From: an uncultured Gammaproteobacteria bacterium
GTDB lineage: Bacteria; Patescibacteriota; Patescibacteriia; Patescibacteriales; GWC2-42-12
Assembly: GCA_964560005.1 (NCBI GenBank)
Contig: CAZLKB010000001.1
Span: 157,216 to 221,215, forward strand
Direction: 5' to 3'
Length of the DNA stretch: 64,000 nucleotides
The notes beneath the pieces are model-generated. The model was not told where the DNA came from and searched no databases. It saw only the letters and a list, made by a program, of their open reading frames with translations. A program made the position numbers and the translations under genes. The first letter of the stretch is position 1. Each line of letters opens with the position of its first letter. Positions 490-56,662 of this stretch are shown in pieces.

Positions 490-503
490 ATTATTTTGCT
501 ATA

Positions 504-598
504 ATAATTATAATGCTAATACTACAAATGAATAACGAATACTACAAATTATTTTTGTAGTATTCGCATACTATTCGTAGTATTCGCATTATAATTAT
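504..598. repeat. AT-rich ~45-nt-arm palindrome built from TACTACAAA / ATTCGTAGTA words, in a divergent promoter region
   Basis: ataattataatgctaatactacaaatgaataacgaatactacaaa / tttgtagtattcgcatactattcgtagtattcgcattataattat; lies between the starts of 16-489(-) and 631-2046(+). Confidence 0.7.
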
Positions 599-630
599 AA
601 CCAATAATCTTAAATTAAGCAAAAACAAGC

Positions 631-2046: not shown

Positions 2047-2080
2047 TTTAATTTTATAATACCTGGTTACGGGCTAAAGC

Positions 2081-2285
2081 CTGGGCATAGTTTATTAAAT
2101 TTACGAACTCGCCCCGTTAAATAGGCTTCGCCCCCCCCGCAGGGATTTAACGGGGCGAGGACTGTTTGAGCCACCACTAGCTCATGATATTCACATCTGA
2201 ACAAAGCGTAAAGAGGAAAAAACAATCATAGAATAGCTGAACGGAAGCGAATTCCGCAGAAGTAAATTTAATAAACTATGCCCAG
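2081..2285. repeat. Long locus-specific foldback with nested GC-rich hairpin
   Basis: Outer arms ctgggcatagtttattaaatttac (2081-2104) / gtaaatttaataaactatgcccag (2262-2285); inner hairpin ctcgccccgttaaat (2108-2122) / atttaacggggcgag (2145-2159). Confidence 0.75.
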
Positions 2286-2337
2286 ACTAAAATAATCAAC
2301 CCGAATAATCCATAAAAATTATTTCTATAAATTAATT

Positions 2338-3474
2338 ATGCCGGTAAAAATCCTGGTTATAAATTCTTTAGCCGAAAAAAACTGCTTGCTGGTGCAGGCT
2401 TTTAAAGAATTGGAGCAAAAAAAATGCTCTTTTAGTCTTTGGTCGTCCAAAGTTAACTTAACTCGCCAATTTCAACAAAATCACTGGCCGGCTAAAAAAA
2501 TCTTCCTAGGGCCAAGCTTAAAAAATAATCCTAATATTTTACTTTTTGTTATAATTTTATTATTTACCCGGCTCAAATTTTTTATCTCTTTGGCTAGCCT
2601 GAAAATGAAGCGCCAAGTTGATTGGATTATCTGTCTTAGTCTGAATGAAAAGCTGATTGCCACTATTCCGGCCAGACTCTTGGGCATAAAAATCCTTTGG
2701 CTGGAAGCGCCCGACTTGAATTATCGCCGGCTAAATAAATTTTTACTTTACCTATATAAAAAAAACCACAGACTAGCCAACCTAATCGCCTTTAACAGTT
2801 ACGCCAAACTGCAGCTAACCAACCTGGGTTTTAGCGAAAATAAAATCAATATTATTCCTCCGGGCATAAAACTTTACCAATACCAGGAAAATATTTTTAG
2901 TAAGCTGGCGGTTTTAGGCCAAGCGAATTTCCACCGTAAATATTTTACCGTCGGCGTTATTGCGGAATTAAGCCAAAAGCAGAAAGTTGAAACTATTTTT
3001 CAAGCCATAAAAATTTGTCTGCCGGTGATACCTAATCTTCAGTTGATTATTATCGGCGAAGGCAAAGAAAGAAAAAACCTGGTCTGGCTAACTAAAAAAA
3101 TGGGAATTGAGAATCTTGTCTGGCTGGTCGGAGAGCAGGAACAACTGAAAAGATGGCTCGGAGGCTTTGATATTTTTTTGGCTGCCAATGACGCCCCAAA
3201 GCTTGACGATTACGGCAATATTTTAGAAGCTATGGCCGCCGGACTGCCGGTGCTGGCGCCGCGCAATATCGGCCTGGAAGATTTAGTAGTTGAAAATAAA
3301 ACCGGCAGCTTAATTGAATCGGACAATAACGAAATGCTGGCGCGCCAAATTATCAAACTGCACCAAGATAAAAAACTGCGCTTATCTTTGGGAAAAAACG
3401 GCAATGAGCGGATTAACCGGCTTTTTACTTTAAACCAAATGATTGCTATGATGGAGCAAAAGTTAATAAAATAA
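2338..3474 (+). CDS. Glycosyltransferase, GT1/GT4 family
   Basis: 378 aa; C-terminal EAMAAGLPVLAPRNIGLEDLVVENKTGSL matches the GT-B E-x7-E nucleotide-sugar binding region. Confidence 0.75.
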   Translation: MPVKILVINSLAEKNCLLVQAFKELEQKKCSFSLWSSKVNLTRQFQQNHWPAKKIFLGPSLKNNPNILLFVIILLFTRLKFFISLASLKMKRQVDWIICLSLNEKLIATIPARLLGIKILWLEAPDLNYRRLNKFLLYLYKKNHRLANLIAFNSYAKLQLTNLGFSENKINIIPPGIKLYQYQENIFSKLAVLGQANFHRKYFTVGVIAELSQKQKVETIFQAIKICLPVIPNLQLIIIGEGKERKNLVWLTKKMGIENLVWLVGEQEQLKRWLGGFDIFLAANDAPKLDDYGNILEAMAAGLPVLAPRNIGLEDLVVENKTGSLIESDNNEMLARQIIKLHQDKKLRLSLGKNGNERINRLFTLNQMIAMMEQKLIK

Positions 3475-3525
3475 TCAATCTTTAAATTGAAGAATAAGCT
3501 TATATCCAAAATAACTCAATAAAAT

Positions 3526-4488
3526 ATGATCATAAAAATAACCAAAAAAAACGCCGAAATCAGATTGGATAAATTTTTAGCCGGCGCTGATTCGGCCTGG
3601 CTGAAAAGCCCGCCTTCCCGCGGCCAAATTCAAAAACTGATTGAACAGAGCCTGGTTAAAGTTAACGGCTCGCCCGCCGTTTCTCACTACAGCTTAAAAC
3701 CGGGCGACATAATTGAAATTCAAAAAAAACTTATAAAAAACAACCAACCGGTAGAAAAAAAAGGTGCTGTAGACGCGTGTTGGCAAAATATTGAAATTAT
3801 TGACGAAACTGATGAATTCTTAATCATCAATAAGCCGGCCGGACTGGCCGTGCATGGAGCCTCCGGCTATACCCTGGCCGATTGGCTTAAAGACAAATAT
3901 CCAAAAATAATAACCGTGGGCGATGATCCGGCGAGGCCGGGCATAGTCCATCGACTGGATAAAAATGTCAGCGGTCTTATGGTTATAGCTAAGACCCAAG
4001 CCGCTTTCAATTACCTGAAAAAACAATTTCAAAACCGGACCGTGATTAAGGAGTACACCGCCTTGGTCCACGGCAAAATCCAAAAAGCCGAAGCTGCGAT
4101 TAACTTCCCGATTAAGCGGGCTAAAAACGGCTATAAGATGGCCGCCGTGCCGTTTACGGTAAGAGGCGAACCTGCGGATAGCGGCCGCGCGGCGCTAACC
4201 GAGTTTAAAATTGTTGCCAGGTTGGTTAACTACACTCTATTAAAAATAAAAATCAAAACCGGGCGCACTCATCAAATCAGGGTCCATCTGGCGGCTTATG
4301 ATCACCCGGTGGTTGGCGATGATATTTATGGCACCGCCAGAGCCAGGATTCAAAACAAGAAACTTGGCTTAAACAGAATTTTCCTGATTGCCGACCACTT
4401 ATGTTTTAATGATTCAGACAATCAGCCAAAAGATTATAAAATCGGCCTGACCGAGGAATTAAAAGAAATTTTAAAACAAGTAAAATAA
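3526..4488 (+). CDS. RluA-family 23S rRNA pseudouridine synthase (RluD-like)
   Basis: N-terminal S4-like RLDKFL segment and catalytic HRLDKNVSGLMV motif. Confidence 0.85.
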   Translation: MIIKITKKNAEIRLDKFLAGADSAWLKSPPSRGQIQKLIEQSLVKVNGSPAVSHYSLKPGDIIEIQKKLIKNNQPVEKKGAVDACWQNIEIIDETDEFLIINKPAGLAVHGASGYTLADWLKDKYPKIITVGDDPARPGIVHRLDKNVSGLMVIAKTQAAFNYLKKQFQNRTVIKEYTALVHGKIQKAEAAINFPIKRAKNGYKMAAVPFTVRGEPADSGRAALTEFKIVARLVNYTLLKIKIKTGRTHQIRVHLAAYDHPVVGDDIYGTARARIQNKKLGLNRIFLIADHLCFNDSDNQPKDYKIGLTEELKEILKQVK

Positions 4489-4490
4489 TT

Positions 4491-5069
4491 ATGATAATTA
4501 CTATCAACGGCACCCCGGGATCGGGTAAAACTACTGTGTCTAAAAAATTAGCTAAAAAATTAAACTGGCCGAGATTTTATGGCGGCGGCATAAGAAGATT
4601 AAAGGCTGAAACCATGGGATTGACTTTGGCCGAATTTAATAAGCTTGGAGAAATTGACGCCAACACAGATTATGAGGTTGATAATTATTTAAAACAGATG
4701 GCCCGAAAACATAAAAACTGTATCATTGAAAGCCGTACGGCCTGGCATCTTTTGCCGCAGTCTATTAAAATTTATCTTGATGTTAAAGACGAGGTTGGCG
4801 CCAAAAGAGTTTTTAAAGAGCTGAAAAGCGGGCATAACCGAAAAAACGAAGATAGGGAGTTAACCAGTATTAAAAATATCTTGAAAAGCCATAAGAAGAG
4901 AAAATTAAGCGATTTAATTCGTTATAAAAAATATTATAATTTTAATCTTTATGATAAAAAAAATTACGATTTTATCCTAGACACCTCCGGTTTGAATAAG
5001 AAGCAAGTTTTTGACCAAGTCTATAAATATATTAAAAATAAATTCCGAAAGATTGACAAAAACCAATAA
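4491..5069 (+). CDS. P-loop nucleotide kinase, cytidylate-kinase-like
   Basis: Walker A INGTPGSGKTTVSKKLA at the N-terminus; 192 aa; substrate not determinable from sequence. Confidence 0.5.
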   Translation: MIITINGTPGSGKTTVSKKLAKKLNWPRFYGGGIRRLKAETMGLTLAEFNKLGEIDANTDYEVDNYLKQMARKHKNCIIESRTAWHLLPQSIKIYLDVKDEVGAKRVFKELKSGHNRKNEDRELTSIKNILKSHKKRKLSDLIRYKKYYNFNLYDKKNYDFILDTSGLNKKQVFDQVYKYIKNKFRKIDKNQ

Positions 5070-5151
5070 TTATTATAACATTGTTAAAGTATTAAACATT
5101 AAATCTACTTAAATAGAACGAGCTAATGTTCTATTTTTAAATTCCAAAAAT

Positions 5152-5496
5152 ATGGCAGAAAAAACATCAGGCGCAAAAGCAAACAGCCAGGAATTAAAAC
5201 CCGGCATGACTGTAAGGGTTTATCAAAAAATTAAAGAACTCAACGCCAAGGGCGAAGAAAAAGAAAGAATTCAGTATTATGAGGGCATGATTATAGCAAA
5301 AAAGCACGGCCAAGAAGCCGGTGCCACCATAACGGTCAGAAAAATATCCGACGGCGTCGGCGTGGAAAAAATCTTCCCTTTAAACTTGCCCACCATAACG
5401 AAAATTGAAATCAAAAAACAAGCTGAAGTTAGGCGGGCTAAGCTTTATTATCTCAGGAATTATAATAAAAAGCTAAAAGAAACGATAATTGCGTAA
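5152..5496 (+). CDS. rplS: 50S ribosomal protein L19
   Basis: LKPGMTVRVYQKI...ERIQYYEGMIIAKKH...ITVRKIS.GVGVEKIFPL pattern typical of L19. Confidence 0.9.
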   Translation: MAEKTSGAKANSQELKPGMTVRVYQKIKELNAKGEEKERIQYYEGMIIAKKHGQEAGATITVRKISDGVGVEKIFPLNLPTITKIEIKKQAEVRRAKLYYLRNYNKKLKETIIA

Positions 5497-5540
5497 GAGT
5501 TGCGCCGGATTCCAAGTCTGGCGATAATGCTAATACTTCG

Positions 5541-5624
5541 GCCGAGGTGGCGAAACTGGTAGACGCATCAGCTTGAGGTGCTGACGGGGGCAACCCCTTG
5601 CAGGTTCGAGTCCTGTCCTCGGCA
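5541..5624 (+). tRNA. tRNA-Leu (anticodon GAG), class II with long variable arm
   Basis: Acceptor gccgagg/cctcggc, anticodon stem tcagc/gctga with loop ttGAGgt, T-loop ttcgagt; hand-folded. Confidence 0.85.
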
Positions 5625-5652
5625 CTTTAAAGGATAACTCTATAGCCCAAAC

Positions 5653-5716
5653 TTGGAGTCCTATCGCAAAAGCAATAGAACAACCCCTAGCCCCGCCGAG
5701 GCGGGGTCCTCGGCAC
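5653..5716 (+). pseudogene. Duplicated tRNA-Leu 3' fragment interrupted by a GC-rich insert
   Basis: ttggagtcct (9/10 match to the T-loop ttcgagtcct) + ~43-nt insert containing cccctagcccc and the hairpin ccccgccgaggcgggg + gtcctcggcac (11/11 match to the tRNA 3' end). Confidence 0.45.
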
Positions 5717-5727
5717 CATCCCCGAAG

Positions 5728-5799
5728 GGACAGTTAGCTCAATGGTAGAGCACTGCGTTTACATCGCAGGTGTTGCAGGTCCGAGTCCTGCACTGTCCA
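5728..5799 (+). tRNA. tRNA-Val (anticodon TAC)
   Basis: Acceptor ggacagt/actgtcc, anticodon stem ctgcg/cgcag with loop ttTACat; abuts the tsaE start codon at 5801. Confidence 0.85.
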
Positions 5800-5800
5800 C

Positions 5801-6226
5801 ATGATTTTTCTCTCTATTTCAGCAAAGCAAACCTTTAACTTCGCCGAAAAAATTTCTAAAAAATTAACCGGGGGCGAAGTTTTTGGGCTAATCGGTAATT
5901 TGGGCGCCGGTAAAACCATTTTTACCAAAGGCTTGGCCAAAGGCCTGGGCATTAAAAAAACCATTACCAGCCCAACCTTTATACTGATGCGCCCTTACCC
6001 GGTGAAGCACCCAAAAATCAAGCAGCTGGTACATATTGACGCTTATAGAATCGCCTCGCCTCGTGATCTTCTCGCTATCGGCTTTGAAGAATTGATCGGC
6101 CGGCCGGATACTGTTACGGTGATTGAATGGGCGGATAAAATAAAAAAAATCTTGCCGAAAAAAACAAGATTTATCACCATTACTCATAAACAGGATAACA
6201 CCAGATCTATAAAATTTCAAAAGTAA
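5801..6226 (+). CDS. tsaE: tRNA t6A37 biosynthesis ATPase TsaE
   Basis: GNLGAGKTIFTKGLAKGLGI....TSPTF...Y motif set typical of TsaE/YjeE. Confidence 0.85.
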   Translation: MIFLSISAKQTFNFAEKISKKLTGGEVFGLIGNLGAGKTIFTKGLAKGLGIKKTITSPTFILMRPYPVKHPKIKQLVHIDAYRIASPRDLLAIGFEELIGRPDTVTVIEWADKIKKILPKKTRFITITHKQDNTRSIKFQK

Positions 6227-6283
6227 AAATAAATTTAGCCAAGACTTAATTGACTTGCTAGAACAATCTATTATGATCAAATA

Positions 6284-6745
6284 TCAGGCTGATCCGGCCT
6301 GTTTTTTATAGGAAAGCATAATAAACAGCATAACGCCAAGCACTATCAGTACATCAGCGATATTAAATATGGTAAAATAAGCTAAATCAAAATAATCAAC
6401 CACCCAGCCATACCGCACCCGGTCAAAAAGATTACTGCTGGCGCCAAAAATTACCAGTGATAAAGACGCCCATTCAGCATATTCTCTCTTTTGATAATAG
6501 TATATAGCGAATATTATTAAGACTATAATAATTAACCAAATTATAACCGCCAGCCAAGTACCGGCTAGCGGCAGGGAAAAAGCGATATAATCGTTTGCCT
6601 GATAATTAAATTTAAACGCCTCTCCGATTAAATTAAACTCAAGATCTTTATCAGCTGCCGCGATAATCTTTAAAAAGCGGTCCAAACCAACAAAAAAAAT
6701 GATGGCAAGATAAATCGCTATCATTTTTTTTATAGTTAAGAGCAT
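6284..6745 (-). CDS. lspA: Lipoprotein signal peptidase II
   Basis: 4 TM; NLFDRVRYGWVVDYF and FNIADVLIVLG motifs. Confidence 0.85.
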   Translation of the reverse strand: MLLTIKKMIAIYLAIIFFVGLDRFLKIIAAADKDLEFNLIGEAFKFNYQANDYIAFSLPLAGTWLAVIIWLIIIVLIIFAIYYYQKREYAEWASLSLVIFGASSNLFDRVRYGWVVDYFDLAYFTIFNIADVLIVLGVMLFIMLSYKKQAGSA

Positions 6746-6752
6746 AAGTCGT

Positions 6753-7124
6753 CTAAGCCATTTTTTGCATCTTGATTTTACAACTAATACAGGTGTTGGC
6801 TACCGGCCTGGCCAGCAAACGCTTTTCTCCGATCTCTTTTTTACAATACTTGCAGATACCATAAGTGCCTTTTTTAATTCTATCCAAGGCATTACTAATA
6901 TCCCTAAGCGTGCTTTCTAAGACTTTTTCCGTAGCCAGGTTGGTGGTGTATTCATCAATTTCCTGCACATTCTCATCGCTTTTGTCGCCGTAGTTGGGAA
7001 ACTTGGTATGATGCTCATCTTTTTCATGCGCGTCTTTTTTGGTGAAACTTTTTAAGTCCTCCTCTACCTGCTTTTTCCTGGCTAGCAGATCTTTCTTGAT
7101 TTTTTCTATTATTTTCTTATCCAT
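6753..7124 (-). CDS. DksA/TraR-family C4 zinc-finger protein
   Basis: C-terminal CKYCKKEIGEKRLLARPVANTCISCK four-Cys finger preceded by a coiled-coil region. Confidence 0.75.
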   Translation of the reverse strand: MDKKIIEKIKKDLLARKKQVEEDLKSFTKKDAHEKDEHHTKFPNYGDKSDENVQEIDEYTTNLATEKVLESTLRDISNALDRIKKGTYGICKYCKKEIGEKRLLARPVANTCISCKIKMQKMA

Positions 7125-7705
7125 ATTTTTATCCCCTAAATAAAATAAATTTCTGAACGGCAGAAATGTATTACTTCTATAATATACAGCAAATTAAACG
7201 ATTTGGCAAGCCGTTTTTTGATATTTAAAAGCGGCCCAGAACGGGCCCCTTTTTATATAAAATTATTATATAGGCCGTAACTGAGCCGCATCCCCAAAGA
7301 TTTATTTCTTCTCCATCCGGTGGATAGATAAGAAAATCCCTAGTCTTCGAGGTTGGAGCTTTAATTGTTCACTTAAAAAAAGCGATTTTCTACTGGCTAT
7401 TGGTAAACCCCCAAAATTTATCTATGAAGATCTACCGTTATTTTATTTTTGTTTTGTTTAATTGCCATGTGAACTCTGGCAGTTAAGCTAGTAGAAAATT
7501 GAAAATATTCCCCAAATATCATATCATTTTGGAAATATTTTCATATGTTATGTTGTTAACGACCTAATATAAATATACCACTAAATTTTAATTAAGTCAA
7601 TAACTTAGTTATCCCAACCTAAATCACTAATATTAAACAATTAATTAATAACTGGGTTATATAATAAAACTTAAGTCCACATTAATCTAGACTTAAGTCT
7701 GTTAT

Positions 7706-7734
7706 TTATCCACATAACTCACTGGTTATCCACA
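7706..7734 (+). promoter_or_regulatory. Two perfect consensus DnaA boxes (TTATCCACA) in direct orientation, 20 bp apart
   Basis: ttatccaca at 7706-7714 and 7726-7734, inside a 720-nt AT-rich non-coding stretch (7140-7860). Confidence 0.5.
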
Positions 7735-7853
7735 GTTTTTTTAAACTAAAGTCCACGACAGCGTAGACTTTAGTCTATTTTACATTATTGTACTAATCAA
7801 TTAGCACTAAAAGTAAAGTCTACATTATCCTGGACATAAGTAATTAATCGCTT

Positions 7854-7932
7854 TGAGGCCAGAATTGGAATTGCCAGCCTGCCTGCCGGTAGGCAGGCCC
7901 AAGGCTGGTCCGCCTCTGGCGGAAACCCATGT
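7854..7932 (-). pseudogene. Duplicated tRNA-Cys 3' half (T-arm + acceptor) split in the T-loop by a 50-nt GC-rich insert
   Basis: On the minus strand: acatgggtt[50 nt]caattccaattctggcctca versus the tRNA acatgggttcaattcccatcctggcctca (27/29). The insert is tccgccagaggcgga + ccagccttgggcctgcctaccggcaggcaggctgg. Confidence 0.6.
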
Positions 7933-7940
7933 CTTAATTG

Positions 7941-8012
7941 AGGCCAGGATGGGAATTGAACCCATGTATAAGAGTTTTGCAGACTCTCGCCTTACCGCTT
8001 GGCTACCTGGCC
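7941..8012 (-). tRNA. tRNA-Cys (anticodon GCA)
   Basis: Reverse complement is ggccaggtagccaagcggtaaggcgagagtctGCAaaactcttatacatgggttcaattcccatcctggcct; U73 discriminator. Confidence 0.85.
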
Positions 8013-8233
8013 TAATTTAACCGATAAATTATTACAATCTTAATTCAATATACCAAAGATTAACGCTAATAACAAGCTTTATCCTGTCAAATCCGCCTGC
8101 CTACCAGCAGGCGGAAATTTGCACAGCAAATTTATTTGACGGGGTGAACCACGCCAACCCCCTTTTAACAGGGTAAATAAAACACCCATTACAGGTGTGT
8201 TGGTTCAACGCTCTATGATAATCAACCAAGGGT

Positions 8234-8797
8234 TTACTCTAAAACTTCTATTTTAGCTATTTTAACGCCGAATTTTATGGCGTCCGGCTTTTCTATCATC
8301 CAAACATCAACTCTGTGAGAAAATCTCTTATTCATTCTATCGCGCACTACGAAGACTCTGTCGCCGAACAGCTCCGGAATCTTAACTTTGGCGCCAAAAG
8401 GCAAGAAATTAGCCGCAATCGTATCTTCAACCCCATTTTCGCAAACATTGAAATTGTTAGCGGTAATACAGGGGGAATCATCGGTTTGACCGGCCTCTGA
8501 ATTATAGGCGGTAACCACAAAATTCTCTGACCATTTTATAGAGGTATTATCACTTTTTGGCAATTTTCCGTTAAACTCCATAAGATCAGTCGAAACATTT
8601 TCATTCGCCATGCTTTGTGATTCGGCAATCAATCCGTTATCTTGGCTAACGACAGTTAACTCTGCGGCTTGACTTGCCATAGAAGGGATGGGAAACAGTA
8701 AAAAATCAAAAAATAAAACAAAAATCAATGCAAAAATTACTTTTTTAGCTTTTTTTAGAGAAATAATTTTTTTATGATTTTTCTTTAACGCTTCCAT
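8234..8797 (-). CDS. Secreted 3D-domain (MltA/RlpA-like double-psi beta-barrel) protein, putative peptidoglycan-active
   Basis: Signal/TM N-terminus; C-terminal TAYN...GQTDDSPCITA...VAANFLPFGAKVKIP...VVRDRMN...VDVWM resembles the 3D domain. Confidence 0.65.
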   Translation of the reverse strand: MEALKKNHKKIISLKKAKKVIFALIFVLFFDFLLFPIPSMASQAAELTVVSQDNGLIAESQSMANENVSTDLMEFNGKLPKSDNTSIKWSENFVVTAYNSEAGQTDDSPCITANNFNVCENGVEDTIAANFLPFGAKVKIPELFGDRVFVVRDRMNKRFSHRVDVWMIEKPDAIKFGVKIAKIEVLE

Positions 8798-9170
8798 ATT
8801 GGCTAGCTATAAATAATTTTCCAAATAAAAATCCCTATCCTGTCCTCCGTAGGATTATGATAGGGATTTTCTTGTCTGATAATATTAGTTTATCACAGAT
8901 AAGATCTTAAGTCAATCTTCGTAAATTAATATATCTAATATTAGCAAATTTTGTATAAAAAACCGAAAAAATAGCATAGTAAATTATAGCGAAACTTGCT
9001 TTTTTTTGCACTTTATGCTATGATATTAAATCGGTTCTTTAAAAATTTTCTTAAATTACCCTGAAAAGAAGATTATATCATCACCCTAAGCAACACATTT
9101 ATGAGATTTCGTTTCTGTAGTCTCCTGTTCGGGGTAATTTAAACAAAACAAACACAAAATAAAAAAAGTT

Positions 9171-9737
9171 ATGAAATCAAAGAATCTAATTCTTATGTTT
9201 GCCGCAGTGTCAATATTGCTCCTATTCTGTGGGTGCGCCCAGGTAGGCCCGGCAATGGTAAGCCCCGCTGTCTACAAGAGCAGCCGGGATGTCATGGTGG
9301 CTAATAACCAGGCCGCAAAACTAGACACAGAGCTTGAGAAGTCGCGCGCTAGCGCTTGGAATCAGGTGGCTTTAAATGAAATTCAGGGGAAAGCCACAGG
9401 CAACGGGAAAGACGCGGTGATCACCGCGGATGGCGTACTAGGAGGATTCTCCTGCATTTTCATTAACGACTCCCAGCAAAATAAAACGCTTACCATACAG
9501 AAAGTCGGGGGCTTTCTTAATGGGAAAAAGTTCAATTTTGAACTAACAAGCCGCGGTGGCCTGAAAAAATACAAGCTGCCGTCAGGCGACTACACCTGCC
9601 GCTGGACTACGGAATACTCGAGCCAGCGCTACCCAGTTGCTGGACCGGCACATTTCCGGGTAACGGTAGACCCCCACTTCTATTATGGAAGAACAGGGGA
9701 AAATTTCCACGGGGGATATAGGCTTTACGGCTATTAA
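9171..9737 (+). CDS. Hypothetical exported protein, possible lipoprotein
   Basis: N-terminus MKSKNLILMFAAVSILLLFCGCAQ is lipobox-like; followed by terminator 9755-9788; visibly more GC-rich than its neighbours. Confidence 0.4.
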   Translation: MKSKNLILMFAAVSILLLFCGCAQVGPAMVSPAVYKSSRDVMVANNQAAKLDTELEKSRASAWNQVALNEIQGKATGNGKDAVITADGVLGGFSCIFINDSQQNKTLTIQKVGGFLNGKKFNFELTSRGGLKKYKLPSGDYTCRWTTEYSSQRYPVAGPAHFRVTVDPHFYYGRTGENFHGGYRLYGY

Positions 9738-9754
9738 AGCCGTACTCAACTCAA

Positions 9755-9788
9755 AGGGAGCGACCTGATAGGCGCTCCCTCTTTTTTT
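9755..9788 (+). terminator. Rho-independent terminator
   Basis: agggagcg-acctgatagg-cgctccct followed by cttttttt. Confidence 0.75.
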
Positions 9789-9802
9789 AAATTAATTTTA
9801 TC

Positions 9803-10237
9803 CTACAATGGCTCACCGCCGCCGCCTCCGCTCCCGCTGCCTCCTCCCGGCAAATTGCTAAACACAAAATAAGTTATGGAATAAGCCGCGATAATAATAA
9901 TTAAACCGATAACCGCCCGAACTAAAGTATCTTTGGCCATAGTTACTTTATTTTCATCGCCCTGCGCCGTCATCCAGTTAAAACCCGCATAAATAATTAA
10001 GACCAAAAAAATTACGCCTAACAGCCCCAGAAAAGCGGTAATCGCATATTTAATTATTTCGGCTAGGGTGGTCGGCGTGGCCTGAACCCAGCCGGCCTTT
10101 AAGCCTGTTTTATTAAGCTGATCCTTTAGATCCGCCTGCGTACTGGCATCTACCGGCGATAAAAAAATTGAAAAATTAAATAAAACAATCGCTATCATTA
10201 AACCATTAAGAATAAATTTCCAATTTTTTTTAAGCAT
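9803..10237 (-). CDS. VirB2/TrbC-like pilin paralogue 2
   Basis: Signal peptide, divergent ectodomain, IYAGFNWMTAQGDENKVTMAKDTLVRAVIGL between two TM helices, Gly/Ser tail. Confidence 0.6.
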   Translation of the reverse strand: MLKKNWKFILNGLMIAIVLFNFSIFLSPVDASTQADLKDQLNKTGLKAGWVQATPTTLAEIIKYAITAFLGLLGVIFLVLIIYAGFNWMTAQGDENKVTMAKDTLVRAVIGLIIIIAAYSITYFVFSNLPGGGSGSGGGGGEPL

Positions 10238-10247
10238 ACTGAAATTT

Positions 10248-10655
10248 TTAAGTTAATATGCCGGTAGTGGTCAGTAATTTATCAAATACCCAATAGCTGA
10301 TGGCATAAGCGGCGATAATTATAATCAATCCGATAATCGCCCGCTGGATGGTTTCTTTGGCTTTATTGACCTTGTCTTCATCGCCTTGCGCGATCATCCA
10401 ATTATAGCCGGCGTATATTATATAGACCAAGAATAGCACGCCTAAAATTCCCAGCATTGCCTGAATAATCAAACCAATAATTCCAGCCAAGTCGTTTTGG
10501 CCTTCAGCTATAGGTTGGTAAGGCGCGTTGCTAAAACCCGTACCGACATTTTTTAAATTATTAGTTGATTGGCTCTCGGCTAAAACTAAGGATGGCATAA
10601 CCAGGAACGCCATTAAGCAGAAGGAAGCTATTATATGTTTTATTATTTTTTTCAT
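10248..10655 (-). CDS. VirB2/TrbC-like pilin paralogue 3 (start re-assigned to MKKIIKHII)
   Basis: IYAGYNWMIAQGDEDKVNKAKETIQRAIIGL. The first 51 codons of the ORF-track version (to 10808) run through palindromic repeat 10669-10809 and look non-coding. Confidence 0.6.
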   Translation of the reverse strand: MKKIIKHIIASFCLMAFLVMPSLVLAESQSTNNLKNVGTGFSNAPYQPIAEGQNDLAGIIGLIIQAMLGILGVLFLVYIIYAGYNWMIAQGDEDKVNKAKETIQRAIIGLIIIIAAYAISYWVFDKLLTTTGILT

Positions 10656-10668
10656 ATGGAATTTTAAT

Positions 10669-10809
10669 TTGTCATTCCCGCCCGTCTCGCCGTAGCGTAG
10701 CCGAGGCGGACGCAGGCACCCTGTTTTCTTTTTCAGCACCGAGGAGCAATCCAGGAGGTGTAGCTTAAGACATGTTTCTAGATTCCGGCTCGGAGGCCGG
10801 AATGACAAG
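10669..10809. repeat. GC-rich palindromic element bounded by TTGTCATTCC ... GGAATGACAA
   Basis: The right module gattccggctcggaggccggaatgacaag (10781-10809) recurs at 53451-53480 and 56843-56902; the left end is ttgtcattcccgcccg. Confidence 0.7.
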
Positions 10810-11250
10810 ATAAGAAATTGTCCTGCCGGCGCTCGCCCCCTTTAAGGTTCCTTTCTCCAGCCTGGACATGACGAACATGCTGATGGCGTAAGCGGCAATA
10901 ATTATAATCGCGCCCATGATCGCCCGCCTAATCGTATCCTTAGCCTTGGTAACTTTATCTTCTTCGCCCTGGGCGGTCAGCCAGTTGTAGCCGGCGTACA
11001 AAATATAAACCAAGAGCAATACGCCGATAATGCTTAAAAATATATTGATAATGGTTTGGACTAAAATTAGAGCGCTATCGTCATTACCAAGATCATACCC
11101 GGCTCTCTCGCCCACAATCCCCACGTCCACGCCTATGCCGTCTTTTACATTATTTTTTATAAGACCGGCATTAGCCTGATCGATAAAAACAAATATGGTC
11201 AAGAAAAAAGCTACAGCTAAAATTCCTATTTTTAAAAATTTTTTACGCAT
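10765..11250 (-). CDS. VirB2/TrbC-like pilin paralogue 4, C-terminus encoded by the repeat element
   Basis: LYAGYNWLTAQGEEDKVTKAKDTIRRAIMG. It has an unusually long tail ...LVIPASEPESRNMS read from the GGATTCCGGCTCGGAGGCCGGAATGACAAG element. Confidence 0.55.
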   Translation of the reverse strand: MRKKFLKIGILAVAFFLTIFVFIDQANAGLIKNNVKDGIGVDVGIVGERAGYDLGNDDSALILVQTIINIFLSIIGVLLLVYILYAGYNWLTAQGEEDKVTKAKDTIRRAIMGAIIIIAAYAISMFVMSRLEKGTLKGASAGRTISYLVIPASEPESRNMS

Positions 11251-11263
11251 ACTTTAAAAGAAA

Positions 11264-11638
11264 TTAAAACAATCTGCTGAAAACAAATCTCCAGATGGCG
11301 TAAGAGCCGACGACGATTATAAGTCCGATAATTGATCTGGTAATCGTATCCTTGGCTTTGCTGACTTTATCTTCATCGCCCTGCGCGGTCATCCAGTTAT
11401 AACCGGCGAAAATCATCAATACCAAAAAAATTATACCGATTAAGCCTAAGGCTACGCCTATTACGGTTCCAATGATTTCGTCCAGTGATAAAATAGTCGC
11501 CTGATTATAGGGTCCTTTTACGGTCGCAACATCATCTAATTCCAGTAGCGGAGGATTGGCGGCCAAAACCAACCGGGGCAATGCCAATACCGCCATTAAA
11601 CCAATTAGGGTTATTAATTTATTATACAGCTTTATCAT
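11264..11638 (-). CDS. VirB2/TrbC-like pilin paralogue 5
   Basis: IFAGYNWMTAQGDEDKVSKAKDTITRSIIGL between two TM helices. Confidence 0.6.
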   Translation of the reverse strand: MIKLYNKLITLIGLMAVLALPRLVLAANPPLLELDDVATVKGPYNQATILSLDEIIGTVIGVALGLIGIIFLVLMIFAGYNWMTAQGDEDKVSKAKDTITRSIIGLIIVVGSYAIWRFVFSRLF

Positions 11639-11664
11639 ATAATAATACTGAAAGAATTGGTAAA

Positions 11665-12153
11665 TTATTTAAACACTTTGGAACCAACTACATTAACAAC
11701 CGACCAGCTGATTACATAAGCGGCCAACACCACAATCAGCCCGATAATGGCATTGGTAATCGTCTGCTTGGCTTTTTCTACTTTCTGTTCATCGCCCCGC
11801 GCCGTCATCCAATTATAACCGCCGTAAATCGCTAAAACCAAAAAAATAATACCCATAAAGCTTAATACCATGGTTATAACCTGGCCAATGATGCTTTTAA
11901 AAGTTGCCGTGTTATTAAAGCCGGCGCCCTGGACGGCCACGGCGTCTAGCGGTGAACCTGTATTAGTATTAAAAGCATTGCCTAGTCCGGTAGTTGATGG
12001 ATTAACTCGTTTAATATAATTATCATAAGACTCGCCGCCCACCGGTTCTTGGTCTTGAGCTAACGCCGAGGTAACTAAAAACACTGAAAAAATAATCAAA
12101 AAGAACAAAATAAAAATTGATTTAACCGTCTTTATGTTGTAACGAATTGCCAT
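11665..12153 (-). CDS. VirB2/TrbC-like pilin paralogue 6
   Basis: IYGGYNWMTARGDEQKVEKAKQTITNAIIGL; overlaps the upstream paralogue by 22 nt. Confidence 0.6.
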   Translation of the reverse strand: MAIRYNIKTVKSIFILFFLIIFSVFLVTSALAQDQEPVGGESYDNYIKRVNPSTTGLGNAFNTNTGSPLDAVAVQGAGFNNTATFKSIIGQVITMVLSFMGIIFLVLAIYGGYNWMTARGDEQKVEKAKQTITNAIIGLIVVLAAYVISWSVVNVVGSKVFK

Positions 12154-12524
12154 AAGGGTATGATTAATTTAACTATCGCGTAAGCGGAAAAAATTACTAT
12201 TATTGCAATAATAGTATTGGTTATTAAGGCTTTTGCCTTCTCCACTTTCTGCTCTTCGCCCCGCGCCGTCATCCAGGTATAACCGCCATAAATTAATATC
12301 ACCATGGCGATTACGCCTATAAACACCGGCGCTAAAACCCCGCCCAGCATTTGTACGAAGAAGGCTCCGGGGTTTGACTCCGCTTTCGCTACCGGATAGC
12401 CGGCCTCTAAGCTGGTGTTCTTTAAACCGTCGGAAAATGAAGAACCGGCGGCGGCAACCGGTAAAACCTGAAAGGCGAAAACTAGTAAAACTATTAATAC
12501 AAAAAACTCGCTAACCTTTTTCAT
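12132..12524 (-). CDS. VirB2/TrbC-like pilin paralogue 7
   Basis: IYGGYTWMTARGEEQKVEKAKALITNTIIAI. Confidence 0.6.
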   Translation of the reverse strand: MKKVSEFFVLIVLLVFAFQVLPVAAAGSSFSDGLKNTSLEAGYPVAKAESNPGAFFVQMLGGVLAPVFIGVIAMVILIYGGYTWMTARGEEQKVEKAKALITNTIIAIIVIFSAYAIVKLIIPLWQFVTT

Positions 12525-12541
12525 AAAACCGGGCTTTAAAA

Positions 12542-12964
12542 TTACTTAAGCGCGTTACTGAAAACATCAGCTATAACTTTAGTAATAGCGTAAGCGCCTA
12601 AAATCACAATCAGGCCCAAGACCGAACCGATGATAGTCTCTTTGGACTTGGTAATTTTCGCTTCATCTCCCTGCGCCAGCATCCAGCCGAATCCGGCCCA
12701 GACAATCAGGCAGAAAAAAATAACTCCGACAAAGGCTAAGATCGCGCCCACGACTTTTCCGATGATGGTCGGCAGATCGGTTTGACTGGTCTGTATGCCG
12801 CCTGTATTGGCCGTATTAACCAGGCCGCTTATCGCGCTATCCACTCCGTTCGCACCGGCCGCGAAAACTACCGGCGCCATTAGTAAAAAAAATATAACAA
12901 TCATTAGGCTGCAGAAAATTATACTATATTTTGAAGTTAAAGACATAGAAAGTTTAAAATGCAA
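12542..12964 (-). CDS. VirB2/TrbC-like pilin paralogue 8
   Basis: VWAGFGWMLAQGDEAKITKSKETIIGSVLGL. Confidence 0.6.
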   Translation of the reverse strand: MHFKLSMSLTSKYSIIFCSLMIVIFFLLMAPVVFAAGANGVDSAISGLVNTANTGGIQTSQTDLPTIIGKVVGAILAFVGVIFFCLIVWAGFGWMLAQGDEAKITKSKETIIGSVLGLIVILGAYAITKVIADVFSNALK

Positions 12965-13211
12965 AAATTAAAATGAAAAATGCTAGCTCCGCTAGCACCC
13001 CGCAGATGCGGGGTCATTGCAGAGCAATGACAATGCAAAATTCAAAATTAATAAATGATTTTACATTTTGAATTGTCATTTTGATTTTTGCATTTTACAT
13101 TTTTAACTTTTATCGCTACTCTGCCCGCGAGCCCAGGCTCCCGTTCAGAGTAGCGGTCCCCAATAAATTGAGGACGCGCTTTTCTCAACACCATACCGGT
13201 ATTGAGAATGA

Positions 13212-13643
13212 TTAGGGGTTAGTAGTGGTAACATTAACGAGCTGTGTAATAACAAAGTTAGCGATAGCGTAAGCTAATATAACGATTACTAAACCAATCA
13301 GGCCGGCGATTAGCATTTTTTTAGCCGCGCCAATCTTATCTTCACTACCTCCGGCAGTCATCCATTTGAAACCGGCGATTAAAATAATAATTACTGCAAT
13401 GATACCTAAAAAGCCCATTATCCATCTTATAATAGATGTTATGGTACTATATGCATCTAGACCGCTTCCTGCCAAACCCGCATCTTCAGCAAATTGTGCC
13501 CCGTTAGGATCAGGGGTACCATTGGCATTCCAATAGTTATCAGCACTAACAGCTAAAGCTGGCAGAGAAAAAGCAAAAACCGGAGTTAGAATCAATAAGG
13601 CCATAACCAAGCCTAAACCTTTTTTCATTAATTTTTGTCTCAT
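13212..13643 (-). CDS. VirB2/TrbC-like pilin paralogue 9 (recent tandem duplicate of paralogue 10)
   Basis: LIAGFKWMTAGGSEDKIGAAKKMLIAGLIGL; GGAGGTGAAA Shine-Dalgarno sequence upstream; near-identical to 13831-14250. Confidence 0.65.
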   Translation of the reverse strand: MRQKLMKKGLGLVMALLILTPVFAFSLPALAVSADNYWNANGTPDPNGAQFAEDAGLAGSGLDAYSTITSIIRWIMGFLGIIAVIIILIAGFKWMTAGGSEDKIGAAKKMLIAGLIGLVIVILAYAIANFVITQLVNVTTTNP

Positions 13644-13830
13644 ATTTCACCTCCGATCAAAGTCAACACAAATATAACAAAAAATGATTTGTTTATACCT
13701 GTGTTAGTGAAGTTATTAAAATATCATCTTGTTTTTATCGCTACTCTGCGCGCGAGCCCAGGCTCCTGTGCAAGGTAGCGGCCCCCAAGTGATTGAGGGC
13801 TCGCTTTTCTTAATACCGGTATTAAGAATG

Positions 13831-14250
13831 TTAAGCAGCAGTAGTAGTAACATTAACGAGCTGTGTGATAACAAAATTTGCGATAGCATAAGCCATTATA
13901 ACGATCACCAAACCTATCAAACCGGATATTAATAATTTTTTAGCCGCGCCAATCTTGTCCTCGCTGCCTCCGGCAGTCATCCATTTGAAGCCGCCGATTA
14001 AGATAACAATCACCGCGATGATGCCTAAAAAGCCCATTATCCATCTTATAATAGATGTTATGGTGCTATATGCATCAAGGCCGCTTCCTGCCAAACCCGC
14101 ATCTTCAGCAAATTGTTCTCCGTTAGTATCAGGAGTACCATTGGCATTCCAAAAGTTATCAGTACCTGCAGCAAAGGCTGGCAGAGAAAAAGCAAAAACC
14201 GGAGTTAAAATCAATACAGCCATAACTAAACCCAATATTTTTTTTCTCAT
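13831..14250 (-). CDS. VirB2/TrbC-like pilin paralogue 10
   Basis: LIGGFKWMTAGGSEDKIGAAKKLLISGLIGL; GGAGGTGAAA Shine-Dalgarno sequence upstream. Confidence 0.65.
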   Translation of the reverse strand: MRKKILGLVMAVLILTPVFAFSLPAFAAGTDNFWNANGTPDTNGEQFAEDAGLAGSGLDAYSTITSIIRWIMGFLGIIAVIVILIGGFKWMTAGGSEDKIGAAKKLLISGLIGLVIVIMAYAIANFVITQLVNVTTTAA

Positions 14251-27047: not shown

Positions 27048-27122
27048 CCCTCGTAGTTCAGTGGATAGAACAAGGGACTCCTAAGCCCTAGACAGAAGTT
27101 CGATTCTTCTCGAGGGCACCAT
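27048..27122 (+). tRNA. tRNA-Arg (anticodon CCT), CCA encoded
   Basis: gccctcg...cgagggcacca; anticodon loop ctCCTaa. Confidence 0.8.
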
Positions 27123-35833: not shown

Positions 35834-35836
35834 CAA

Positions 35837-35872
35837 AAAAGATAAAGCCCCCTTCGGGGCTTTATCTTTTTT
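35837..35872. terminator. Terminator hairpin after tRNA-Asp
   Basis: aaaagataaagcccc-ttcg-ggggctttatctttttt. Confidence 0.75.
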
Positions 35873-35883
35873 ATGAGATAGAA

Positions 35884-35986
35884 GACGGGACGAGAACGCC
35901 GGACCCCGCATTTGCGGGGGAGGCGGTGGCTAGGCCGAGGAGGCGGCAGCCGACGAGAGCCGAAGCCGAGTCCCGTCCATCCCGCA
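35884..35986 (+). pseudogene. Duplicated tRNA-Asp 3' end with ~70-nt GC-rich insert (att-like)
   Basis: cgagtcccgtccatcccgca at 35967-35986 is a 20/20 direct repeat of 35816-35835; preceded by gacgggacgaga and GC-rich hairpins (ccccgcatttgcgggg). Confidence 0.6.
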
Positions 35987-44232: not shown

Positions 44233-45363
44233 ATGTCTTTATCCATCGGCATTGTGGGTTTGCCTAATGTGGGCAAATCAACTCTATTTAACGCTTTAAC
44301 CAAGAAAAATGTGGAAGCGTCCAATTATCCTTTTTGCACCATTGATCCGAATGTGGGCGTGGTTAAAGTACCCGACGAGAGACTGGAGAAGCTGGCGGCA
44401 ATATCCAAGCCTAAAAAGATAATTCCGACCTATATTGAATTCGTGGATATCGCCGGCTTGGTTAAGGGCGCGTCGGAAGGCGAAGGCCTGGGCAACAAAT
44501 TTTTATCCCATATCCGGGAATGCGACGCCATCTTAGAAGTAGTTCGGGAATTTAAAGATGACAATATTATTCATGTTAACGGAAAAATTGACCCGGACTC
44601 TGACAGAGAAACGATTAATCTGGAATTGATTTTGGCCGATCTGGCCACGGTGGAAAAAAGATTGGAGAAAGTAATAAAGGAGGCTAAGAGCGGCAATAAA
44701 GAAATGATCGTTTTAAAAAATTTGCTGGAGAAAATAAAAATACAACTGGAAGCCGGCAAGGCGGTGCGCGAGATGAGTTTAACTGAAGATGAAACTAGAG
44801 AAGTTAAAATTTTAGGATTATTGACGGTAAAACCGATTATTTATGTGCTGAATACTAAGGGAGAAAACCCCCTTTCCGCCGAAGGCGGATCCGCCCCTGT
44901 GGGAAGCCCCCCTCCGCCAGAGGCGGACAAATTTATCAAGGGGGCTGAAAATACTCGGAATGGAAAAGTTATAAAGATTGACGCCAAGATTGAAGCGGAA
45001 ATCGCCGGTTTGCCCGAAGCCGAACAGGCGGAATATATTAAAGAATTAGGTTTAAACCAAAGCGGTTTGGATAAATTAATAAAAGCGTCTTATGAAATTT
45101 TGGGCTTGATAACTTTTTTAACCACCGGAGCGGACGAAACCCGCGCCTGGACGATAAAACGCGGGACTAAGGCACCCGAAGCCGCCGGCGTGATTCACAC
45201 GGACTTCGCTAAAGGCTTTATCCGCGCCGAAGTGATAGATTGGCGGAAGTTTATTGAAGCCGGAAGCGAGGCTAAAGCGCGCGAGCTAGGGTGGATGAGA
45301 ACCGAAGGCAAGAATTACATCATGCAGGATGGGGATGTATGTAATTTTTTGATTAATAGCTAA
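44233..45363 (+). CDS. ychF: Ribosome-binding ATPase YchF, with in-frame GC-rich palindromic insert
   Basis: [44 protein letters not shown]-terminal TGS region; extra [18 protein letters not shown]. Confidence 0.9.
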
Positions 45364-56632: not shown

Positions 56633-56662
56633 TCCGCCAGAGGCGGATCCGCCCTTGGCGGA
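56633..56662. repeat. Tandem GC hairpin modules TCCGCCAGAGGCGGA + TCCGCCCTTGGCGGA
   Basis: The first 15-mer is identical to 44913-44927 (inside ychF) and is the reverse complement of 7909-7923. Confidence 0.75.

Follow-up and report, generated by a model that had tools for sequence, protein, structure and literature searches.

Displaced tRNA 3′ ends, hairpin repeats and GIY-YIG nuclease genes at tRNA loci of Patescibacteria: possible traces of homing-like overwriting

Introduction

In the mitochondrial genome of Allomyces macrogynus the atp6-ORF360 element is said to be an endonuclease insert that brings with it a substitute 3′ part of the gene, while the native 3′ part stays downstream and unused; according to Paquin et al. 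(1994, PNAS) and Paquin, Laforest and Lang (2000, Mol Biol Evol), the same genome is populated by double-hairpin elements, which are GC-rich, consist of two stem-loops and show compensatory changes in their stems. The T loop of tRNA genes is likewise said, in work by Williams of 2002 in Nucleic Acids Research, to be a sublocation used by integrases. Phage T4 encodes SegB in its tRNA cluster, a site-specific GIY-YIG endonuclease that drives the preferred inheritance of the region (PMC2330249). Group I introns at position 35/36 of tRNA genes have been reported from Patescibacteria, in a paper that makes no mention of fragments, hairpins or GIY-YIG (PMC13011429); in the literature searched, neither GIY-YIG/tRNA cassettes nor the hairpin units treated below were described for Patescibacteria. 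Here we consider a stretch of Patescibacteria DNA of 64 kilobases (kb; contig CAZLKB010000001.1, hereafter “the window”), in which a tRNA-Cys gene is followed by a second copy of its own 3′ end that is split by two hairpins, together with related tRNA loci in other genomes.

On the evidence set out below, we regard it as an evenly balanced proposition that the segment at window positions 7854-7932 is a non-functional relic, namely the original 3′ end of tRNA-Cys from about position 47 to the discriminator and a following CA, displaced by a patch of 85 nucleotides (nt) that carried a substitute end, a spacer and the hairpins and that came from a homing-like overwriting of the tRNA gene.

A displaced 3′ end behind tRNA-Cys

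The tRNA-Cys gene and its copy are read on the minus strand of the window (Table 1). The intact gene lies 8 nt upstream of the relic, and the two repeat copies are separated by only 6 nt. As an earlier note made from the sequence had described, a GC-rich insert of 50 nt interrupts the copy within the T loop, with GGGTT on one side and CAATT on the other. When the insert is excised in silico, the copy matches the last 27 nt of tRNA-Cys plus 2 flanking nt at 27 of 29 positions. In a split-match test, in which any split point and a gap of 0-100 nt were allowed within at most 300 nt downstream, this score was reached at a gap of 50 nt and compares with 17.6 ± 0.9 (maximum 22) in 300 Markov shuffles (z about 10), so that the 29-nt similarity claimed in the note stands out clearly from chance. 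Of the two substitutions in the right-hand piece of the copy, one disrupts the T stem. The relic lacks tRNA positions 1-46 as well as a separate promoter, and no terminator was found between tRNA-Cys and the relic. The insert consists of two abutting hairpins with a DNA fold of -23.5 kcal/mol (z = -3.7), which was matched by none of 200 shuffles, and the loop of the second hairpin itself holds a nested hairpin of 20 nt (GCCTGCC-TACC-GGCAGGC, about 7877-7898). A Logan contig from a separate assembly agrees with the window at 100% identity over positions 488-9856 (9.4 kb), including the tRNA-Cys locus; an assembly artefact is therefore unlikely, and analogous structures moreover occur in many unrelated metagenome-assembled genomes.

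Beside tRNA-Cys lies a gene for a 3D-domain protein (8234-8797, minus strand) with hundreds of homologues at 64-76% identity, which, where named, are labelled Patescibacteria, Parcubacteria or Falkowbacteria. The window comes from a Falkowbacteria-like member of the Patescibacteria. Among species-representative genomes, 80 syntenic loci (given L numbers here) were found, in which the 3D gene is usually followed by tRNA-Cys and then, 2-3 kb further on, by tRNA-Val and tRNA-Leu(GAG). Six of these relatives (L003, L005, L009, L011, L013 and L015) align colinearly with the window in the promoter block (CTTGTTTTAAG...TTGGTATATT), the tRNA and the downstream flank (TGTCYAGGATAATGTGGACTTTAC...). They provide the empty sites that the earlier note had proposed to look for, since they have both flanks and all lack a block of about 85 nt, including the ATTAAG spacer, that is present in the window alone. 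The promoter-like site of tRNA-Cys lies within the ancestral sequence common to the relatives, and the right-hand piece of the relic directly adjoins the ancestral flank TGTCCAGGATAATGTAGACTTTAC, which is common to L005, L009 and L013. Because of this junction the downstream copy is, as judged from the alignments, the displaced original end of tRNA-Cys, and the working end belongs to the inserted block; the last 18-20 nt of the functional gene, from C56 on, are part of the patch.

The block, placed at the T loop (GGGTT|CAATT), would comprise the substitute 3′ end CAATTCCCATCCTGGCCTCA, the spacer ATTAAG, the piece ACATGGGTT and the double hairpin. The resident promoter and 5′ part would be read into the substitute end to give a working tRNA, with the hairpins and the old end trailing behind. 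The tRNA-Cys of the window has the same sequence as that of L005, and over its 3′ 40 nt it matches the L004 relic at 100%, which identifies the window allele as a resident type of the kind that gets overwritten. Among closer relatives (P0002, P0006, P0011 and P0015), one has a different tRNA-Cys allele and no relic, and two contigs stop within tRNA-Cys. The Logan contigs of the close relatives L096 and L098 end inside the gene at about position 31 and position 46, respectively, where assemblies may break through strain heterogeneity or repeats in the 3′ half of the gene.

Displaced ends of tRNA-Leu and tRNA-Asp

The architecture was also claimed to recur at tRNA-Asp and, more weakly, at tRNA-Leu. 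Both recurrences hold, that at tRNA-Leu being weak alone and supported by comparison, and that at tRNA-Asp involving an insert which is a different module. Behind tRNA-Leu(GAG), TTGGAGTCCT (5653-5662), which is similar to TTCGAGTCCT of the T loop and stem, is followed after 43 nt by GTCCTCGGCAC. The split match scores 21 of 29 (z = 3.6), which equals the null maximum. Support for a relic comes from the extra 3′-end copy holding the ancestral place beside tRNA-Val, and from the enlarged spacer between tRNA-Leu and tRNA-Val, which measures 102 nt in the window vs 4-8 nt in nine of the 15 relatives listed (L006, L009, L010, L012, L015, L016, L020, L021 and L030).

At tRNA-Asp the split score is 26 of 29 (z = 8.6). 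The segment at 35884-35897, formerly taken for the 5′ piece of the tRNA-Asp copy, is more plausibly an inverted T-arm copy, in which GACGGGAC faces GTCCCGTC. The filler that follows aligns with the module downstream of a GIY-YIG-linked tRNA-Val in L099, a Magasanikbacteria locus, with the common motif GAACGCCGGA...GAGGCGGTGGCyAGsCCGAGGAGGCGGmAGCCGACrAGAGsCGArGC, and the same layout is present after tRNA-Gly in L065, L067 and L077 (L079 being empty) and after tRNA-Leu(TAA) in L092 and L093. Because of this homology and recurrence, the tRNA-Asp insert corresponds to the right-end module of a GIY-YIG/tRNA element minus the nuclease part. A metagenome scan for orthologous tRNA-Asp loci with the neighbouring SpoU methylase returned only three distant loci, all without tRNAs.

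Three further observations concern these and other tRNA ends. Downstream of tRNA-Asp, a 56-nt repeat is present in two copies (36389-36444 and 37432-37487, 79% identical) that contain promoter-like GGTTATAAT and end in (C)CGTCCACTTGCTCCCGCA, which is similar to the 3′ end of tRNA-Asp but for an insertion of 5 nt; an open reading frame (ORF) of 269 amino acids (aa; 36571-37380) without an annotatable family lies between the copies, which may be further displaced tRNA-Asp ends from stacked insertions. The near-identical strains L092 and L093 diverge right after the tRNA-Leu(TAA) 3′-end relic, with about 237 nt more in L093 (by called gene positions), so this displaced end may remain an active insertion point. 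Finally, the CCA end is encoded in tRNA-Arg(CCT) (27047-27121) and in none of the other five tRNAs of the window; in relatives an encoded CCA is often seen on newer, imported tRNA copies (tRNA-Val of L007 and L016, tRNA-Cys of L017).

tRNA fragments in related loci

Terminal 16-mers of 143 tRNAs from 81 sources (the window and L002-L081) were searched for with up to 3 mismatches. The 3′-terminal 16-mer recurs downstream in nine cases, and in none upstream or on the opposite strand; the 5′-terminal 16-mer recurs upstream in eight cases, two of which (L038 and L072) are false positives in coding sequence, and in none downstream or on the opposite strand. Since 3′ copies lie only downstream and 5′ copies only upstream, the new genes or gene parts sit within older genes. 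Other tRNAs display the pattern as well, as the earlier note had expected if it was real, namely tRNA-Asp and tRNA-Leu in the window.

The break points fall in different loops. In L004, L010 and L014 the tRNA-Cys relic reads AGTCTG, then two 15-nt hairpins, then CAAAACTC... to the 3′ end, with the break inside the anticodon, and the relic of L006 is a decayed version of this type. The tRNA-Cys of L017 is preceded by a 5′ piece with CCCCGCCCC and followed by GGGGCGGGG|CGATTCC..., the break lying at 55/56. The tRNA-Val of L016 is followed by GGGTTC, two 21-nt hairpins and GAATCC... between native flanks and without a nuclease, and CCA is encoded by the new end and not by the relic; a comparable relic follows the tRNA-Val of L010. 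In L007 (about 5530-5720), L014 (10197-10360) and L028 (about 9060-9260), an older tRNA-Val gene is interrupted at 35/36 by a complete tRNA-Val, which is flanked by TTCA-CCCnnn.../...nnnGGG-CAAG stems, whose sequences covary between genomes; neither a nuclease ORF nor a match to group I introns was found at these three loci. Every relic seen has hairpins within 5-15 nt of its 5′ boundary, and no uninterrupted relic was found.

GIY-YIG nuclease genes joined to tRNA genes

The space between the ancestral tRNA promoter and the new tRNA-Cys is taken up in L004, L010 and L014 by an ORF of about 81 aa, which begins right behind the promoter and extends to the tRNA. These ORFs match the Pfam family GIY-YIG (PF01541) with E = 1e-13, and a second family, located before tRNA-Val in L032, matches it with E = 3e-14. 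Only four intact ORFs of the two families are present in the 80 loci (L004, L010, L014 and L032), and all four abut a tRNA. In all contexts fetched (these four and L085, L087, L089, L091, L092, L099 and L100), the ORF stands directly upstream of a complete tRNA or overlaps it, the tRNA being of type Cys, Val or Ala. The two protein families have 139 and 154 members, and their source-named matches are all Patescibacteria/Candidate Phyla Radiation or labelled only “bacterium”, with named members from Portnoy-, Wolfe-, Magasanik- and Pacebacteria and other Patescibacteria groups.

The fusion of ORF and tRNA is flanked by old tRNA pieces in five distinct genomes for the Cys family and in two for the Val/Ala family. 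L085, L087, L089, L091 and L092 share the order old tRNA-Cys 1-34, double hairpin, CAAAAC..., ORF and new tRNA-Cys; in L087, L089 and L091 the new tRNA-Cys is followed by a few nucleotides (..GTCTG), a double hairpin and old positions 35-73, while in L092 the old 3′ part has decayed and L085 has no 3′ relic. L099 and L100 have old positions 1-33 with a D-loop hairpin (CCCGCCCG...CGGGCGGG), then the ORF, the new tRNA, a terminator, an inverted T-arm copy, GC-rich filler and the old 3′ end from position 57. L006 has lost an internal part of the ORF but retains the new tRNA, hairpin and relic. L014 and L015 form a filled/empty pair with flanks that are 91-95% identical: L015 lacks anything corresponding to about 309 nt of L014, most of which are the GIY-YIG ORF, and beyond the new tRNA and the double hairpin the two sequences are again closely homologous (95%) from near tRNA position 34/35 onwards. 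The two loci differ additionally by the nested tRNA-Val.

Two features of homing cassettes are thus present. Filled and empty alleles with a precise junction inside the target gene exist both for the window vs the six relatives and for L014 vs L015, and a substitute is supplied for the displaced part, the native part being kept as a pseudogene.

The hairpin family

The hairpins belong to a family of 15-nt units, which have a stem of 6 base pairs, a loop of 3 nt and invariant TC...GA ends and occur mostly as tandem pairs. In an alignment of 14 doublets from nine genomes, compared with 500 shuffles and with slid controls, 97% of the cells are paired and compensatory changes occur in six of the 12 pairs; none of the shuffles attains the observed paired fraction, doubly-changed-cell count or covariation score, and the slid controls have 23-51% pairing. 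Perfect units number 53 in 882 kb vs 9-20 in Markov controls. Each genome tends to have stem sequences of its own, which points to local propagation or homogenisation.

Exact copies of unit 1 (TCCGCCAGAGGCGGA) are found elsewhere in the window at 44913-44927 and 56633-56647, and CCTGCC...GGCAGG hairpins, as in unit 2, are also found in L006, L012 and L024. In the YchF gene (44233-45363) the units lie within 44866-44930 and add about 12 residues compared with the structure of Haemophilus influenzae YchF (1jal); their position inside the gene is reminiscent of Rickettsia palindromic elements in proteins. Within dead tRNA pieces, units are seen in the D loop (L087 and L092), in the anticodon loop (L004, L010, L014, L085, L087, L089, L091 and L092) and in the T loop (L091), the T loop of the L016 tRNA-Val relic holding the two 21-nt hairpins. 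L013 (about 3950-4000) carries a solitary inserted GC hairpin (CCCCACACCAC...GTGGTGTGGGG) together with a duplication of TTTAC, and in L034 (1900-1960) a double hairpin lies between AATCCCCCT repeats; these two cases indicate that some hairpin insertions create short target duplications. GIY-YIG ORFs are associated with hairpin units in relatives, an association that need not be causal. We know of no RAYT-like transposase for the 15-nt units.

Table 1. Coordinates and basis of the features identified in the window (strand given as + or -;. where a feature has none).
Feature	Position	Strand	Basis or remark
Functional tRNA-Cys(GCA)	8012..7940	-	ARAGORN; Rfam RF00005 8012..7941, 68.9 bits
Promoter-like site of tRNA-Cys, TTGTTA-17-TATATT with TG	8047..8075	-	consensus scan
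Spacer ATTAAG between functional 3′ end and relic	7938..7933	-	part of inserted block; not in empty-site relatives
Relic left piece ACATGGGTT	7932..7924	-	variable region, T-stem 5′ strand, first two T-loop bases; 9/9 identical to tRNA
GC-rich insert of 50 nt (double hairpin)	7923..7874	.	splits copy between GGGTT and CAATT of T loop
Hairpin unit 1, TCCGCC-AGA-GGCGGA (TCCGCCAGAGGCGGA)	7909..7923	.	fold; 15-nt TCnnnn-NNN-nnnnGA family
Hairpin unit 2, 15-nt CCAGCC-TTG-GGCTGG with hairpin nested in loop	7874..7908	.	fold; hairpin scan
Relic right piece CAATTCCAATTCTGGCCTCA	7873..7854	-	T loop 3′ part, T-stem 3′ strand, acceptor 3′ strand, discriminator, CA; 18/20 identical to tRNA
Extended hairpin TCCGCCTGC-CTACCA-GCAGGCGGA, related to unit family	8092..8115	.	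between 3D-domain gene and tRNA-Cys promoter; segment fails to align with relatives
Insert after tRNA-Leu(GAG): spacer, TTGGAGTCCT, then hairpins CTATCGC-AAAA-GCAATAG and CCCCGCC..GGCGGGG	5626..5705	+	sequence
Relic of tRNA-Leu 3′ end, GTCCTCGGCAC	5706..5716	+	exact 11-mer; ancestral distance from tRNA-Val
Insert after tRNA-Asp: terminator hairpin (about 35836-35872), inverted T-arm copy GACGGGACGAGAAC (35884-35897), GC/purine-rich filler	35835..35966	+	sequence
Relic of tRNA-Asp 3′ end, CGAGTCCCGTCCATCCCGCA, starting at C56 of T loop	35967..35986	+	exact 20-mer
Hairpin units inside YchF gene: TCCGCCGAAGGCGGA, TCCGCCCCTGTGGGA, then TCCGCCAGAGGCGGA after 8-nt gap	44875..44927	.	ORF stays open; Pfam = YchF
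Intergenic double hairpin TCCGCCAGAGGCGGA TCCGCCCTTGGCGGA, then CAAAC	56633..56662	.	hairpin search

Possible origin of the displaced ends

The overwriting proposed for tRNA-Cys could proceed as follows. A GIY-YIG nuclease would break a naive tRNA gene, and the block would be copied from a donor genome during double-strand-break repair, by homing-like gene conversion or recombination. The donor element may be pictured as an old tRNA 5′ piece with hairpins, the GIY-YIG ORF of about 80 aa, a complete new tRNA, a spacer with a few old-tRNA nucleotides and hairpins, and the old tRNA 3′ piece. The broken left end would then have two donor partners, the 5′ relic or the intact new tRNA, and pairing with the new tRNA would copy only the right-hand module, so that the nuclease gene would be left behind. 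Such a nuclease-less outcome would fit tRNA-Cys, tRNA-Leu and tRNA-Asp of the window, tRNA-Val of L016 and L010, and tRNA-Gly of L065, L067 and L077. In the relics the hairpins may interrupt the target site of the nuclease, much as introns do for the endonucleases they encode, or they may be mobile units that favour hairpin loops. We infer that the nuclease cuts tRNA genes, and likewise the route of repair and the sequence of events; the hairpins may have arrived with the patch or afterwards.

More tentatively, Patescibacteria may carry undescribed selfish elements that consist of a GIY-YIG gene of about 80 aa and a replacement tRNA and are bounded by covarying 15-nt double hairpins. Such an element would break the resident tRNA gene in a loop and become indispensable as the source of the only working copy, its nuclease-less products would be common footprints, and the hairpins may be mobilised by the same nuclease.

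Several points weigh against this account. Searches of the 64-kb window by tblastn or jackhmmer with the ORFs of two relatives yielded no GIY-YIG gene; as the endonuclease ORF was found only in relatives (L004, L010, L014, L032, L085-L095, L099 and L100), the window represents at most a nuclease-less derivative. A donor with the arrangement ATTAAG-ACATGGGTT-hairpin was not found. The substitute end and the relic are only 2 nt apart, so that a foreign origin is not demonstrable at tRNA-Cys of the window (it is demonstrable in L016), and the identity of unit 1 to two other copies in the genome fits a later colonisation of the relic at least as well. The GIY-YIG proteins of about 80 aa are bare catalytic domains without a DNA-binding domain, which makes site-specific homing activity an assumption. 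In several elements the cassette tRNA has the same anticodon loop as the target, and the account does not explain how self-cleavage would be avoided, nor the first origin of the repeated architecture of a few nucleotides, double hairpin and 3′ part.

The alternative that survives best, which we still consider rather unlikely, is that two independent steps took place: a duplication of the 3′ end through slippage, illegitimate recombination in transformation or a decayed element, and a later, harmless insertion of hairpins into the dead T loop by a module that prefers DNA-hairpin loops. Mobility of the hairpins on their own is in keeping with this, given the two exact copies of unit 1 and the related units in frame in YchF and between genes, the hairpin nested in the loop of unit 2, a second double hairpin in the T loop of the L091 relic beyond the one at the junction, and the solitary L013 hairpin with its TTTAC duplication in the same intergenic region. 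Two unrelated steps are harder to reconcile with the constant position of the hairpins near the 5′ boundary of all relics seen, with the spacer and the encoded CCA of L016, which mark the upstream end as imported rather than as a local tandem copy, and with the D-loop hairpin being a conserved part of the GIY-YIG elements in L032, L099 and L100.

Considerably less probable is a classical attachment (att) scar, in which a tyrosine-recombinase element would have integrated at the T-loop sublocation of tRNA-Cys with a substitute 3′ end and lost its body, leaving attL and attR nearly adjacent, with attR later gaining the GC insert. The direct repeat of the tRNA 3′ segment does begin at or near the T loop, which is reportedly where integrases act, and runs from the T arm to the 3′ end (27 of 29 for tRNA-Cys; an exact 20-mer is found for tRNA-Asp), and the 3′-end-like repeats (..GTCCACTTGCTCCCGCA, 36427-36444 and 37468-37487) that follow the 56-nt conserved arm and enclose an ORF downstream of tRNA-Asp are like a tandem accretion of islands. 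However, no recombinase was detected in NCBIfam and Pfam scans of 20 ORFs near the three tRNAs, which are part of the window ORFs, and none was seen beside the tRNA relics examined in L002-L081 by direct reading of the sequence, which was not a systematic ORF scan. Only 6 nt and no element body lie between the repeats, the core is split by 50 nt at the centre of the T loop, a near-total deletion of the element would be required at three of the six tRNAs of the window, and the gene found inside nested tRNA pieces of relatives is a GIY-YIG nuclease. In L100 (1676-2640) a large serine recombinase gene (Resolvase/Recombinase/Zn_ribbon_recom) is present beside the GIY-YIG/tRNA-Ala element and next to the tRNA-Ala relic, where it abuts the neighbouring tRNA-Ser; tRNA clusters of these genomes are used by recombinase-type elements too.

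The three origins offered in the earlier note fare differently against this evidence. Its att scars of lost elements, later colonised by GC modules, find little support as scars, given the missing integrase and element body, the short distance between the repeats and the GIY-YIG genes in relatives, whereas mobile GC modules as such find good support, being a dispersed, covarying family. A module hitting the live T loop, with repair by duplication, would need a lethal intermediate, and no tRNA-Cys with an interrupted copy alone was found. Closest to the data comes the replacement of a disrupted original 3′ half by a new one, since the copy adjoins the ancestral flank and the working end lies in the 85-nt block missing from relatives.

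It is highly improbable that the downstream piece is functional, be it as a 3′ trailer that stabilises or terminates the transcript, as a nuclease decoy or as the 3′ half of a split or intron-containing tRNA. The covariation of the hairpin stems across genomes points to a maintained structure, and the piece is probably co-transcribed, as no terminator precedes it; yet positions 1-46 are missing, a substitution breaks the T stem, an intact tRNA-Cys lies just upstream, close relatives do without the relic, the homologous relic of L006 decays, and Rfam detects no family but tRNA.

Further candidates were rejected. A group I or other tRNA intron, including the bulge-helix-bulge type, is contradicted by Rfam, which finds only tRNA in the window and 12 related loci, and by the lack of positions 1-46 in the split copy; a split tRNA gene of the Nanoarchaeota type is contradicted by the intact upstream tRNA-Cys and by the relic having no promoter. 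The double hairpin is not an intron of a sole tRNA-Cys either, as in ARAGORN-negative loci (including L002 and L008) tRNA-Cys is absent or the contig ends, and no interrupted-only copy is found. Palindromic fill-in of the flanks in the manner of P nucleotides fails because the stems are not copies of flanking tRNA, and a simple transposase target-site duplication because the flanking repeats range from 5 to 21 nt and the hairpins lie inside the second copy. A phage vector was discarded, as neither the double-hairpin/anticodon pattern nor the GIY-YIG protein has a match in viral contigs.

Other features of the region

Downstream of the tRNA-Cys relic, the intergenic region at 7640-7830 contains three palindromes (AAGTCCAC...GTGGACTT) and two DnaA-box-like TGTGGATAA motifs, an arrangement kept in nearly all related loci. 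dnaN and a probable dnaA are located at 20.4-23.3 kb of the window, and the cumulative GC skew has its minimum near 21 kb; the region at 7640-7830 might serve as an additional DnaA-binding region or belong to a split origin. On the other side of tRNA-Cys, window positions 9800-14250 hold, on the minus strand, an array of about eight paralogous small ORFs (repeat families D1-D3), and on the contig of one relative the syntenic genes upstream of the 3D-domain gene match Pfam T4SS_pilin.

Comparison with known systems

If the proposed overwriting is correct, tRNA genes of these ultra-small Patescibacteria would be repeatedly overwritten by selfish nuclease-plus-tRNA cassettes. This would explain the rapid turnover of tRNA alleles and their horizontal transfer in these lineages and account for stray tRNA fragments that confuse annotation. 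It would further draw attention to a set of very small nucleases, with tRNA-gene sequence or hairpin DNA as their possible targets of recognition, and would define a family of 15-nt hairpin repeats that also enter essential proteins in frame.

Compared with what is reported of the atp6-ORF360 element of Allomyces, the loci share the substitute 3′ part with the native part downstream and the GC-rich double hairpins in the same genome. They differ in that the target is a tRNA and not a protein gene, the host a bacterium and not a fungal mitochondrion, and the hairpins lie exactly at the junctions in tRNA loops. With the tRNA attachment sites of tyrosine recombinases they have in common a duplicated 3′ segment from the T or anticodon loop and a gene completed by imported sequence; unlike at such sites, there is no integrase or element body, the repeat is interrupted centrally, and the upstream 5′ relics of the relatives are not produced by an att duplication.

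As in the intronless homing of SegB (PMC2330249), the GIY-YIG gene of the relatives lies in or next to tRNA genes and would spread through cleavage of naive alleles and co-conversion of flanking markers. Unlike SegB, it belongs to a cellular host and not to a phage, and a bare catalytic domain of 80 aa is fused to a complete replacement tRNA; moreover, the resident gene is split with its pieces persisting, double hairpins mark the junctions, and the window has no nuclease gene, the cleavage being putative. The group I introns of Patescibacteria (PMC13011429) occur in the same phylum and share the anticodon-loop sites, the nested tRNA-Val genes of L007, L014 and L028 lying at 35/36 as well. In contrast to these introns, the inserts are hairpins of 30-130 nt or a whole tRNA with a nuclease ORF, have no ribozyme match and leave interrupted copies that are incomplete genes.

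The hairpin units resemble REP/BIME/REPIN sequences, Rickettsia palindromic elements, mitochondrial GC clusters and other hairpin-forming elements (PMC4478555, PMC2800124) in being short, GC-rich and multicopy in an AT-richer genome, in their variable presence between relatives, in being tolerated in frame (YchF) and in their compensatory stem changes. They differ from these dispersed palindromic repeats in that the units measure just 15 nt (6-3-6), have invariant TC...GA ends and usually form tandem pairs, and in that they sit in the loops of dead tRNAs and flank GIY-YIG/tRNA cassettes. Set beside all of these systems, the feature of the window is a variation on known kinds, and the broader system may deserve more.

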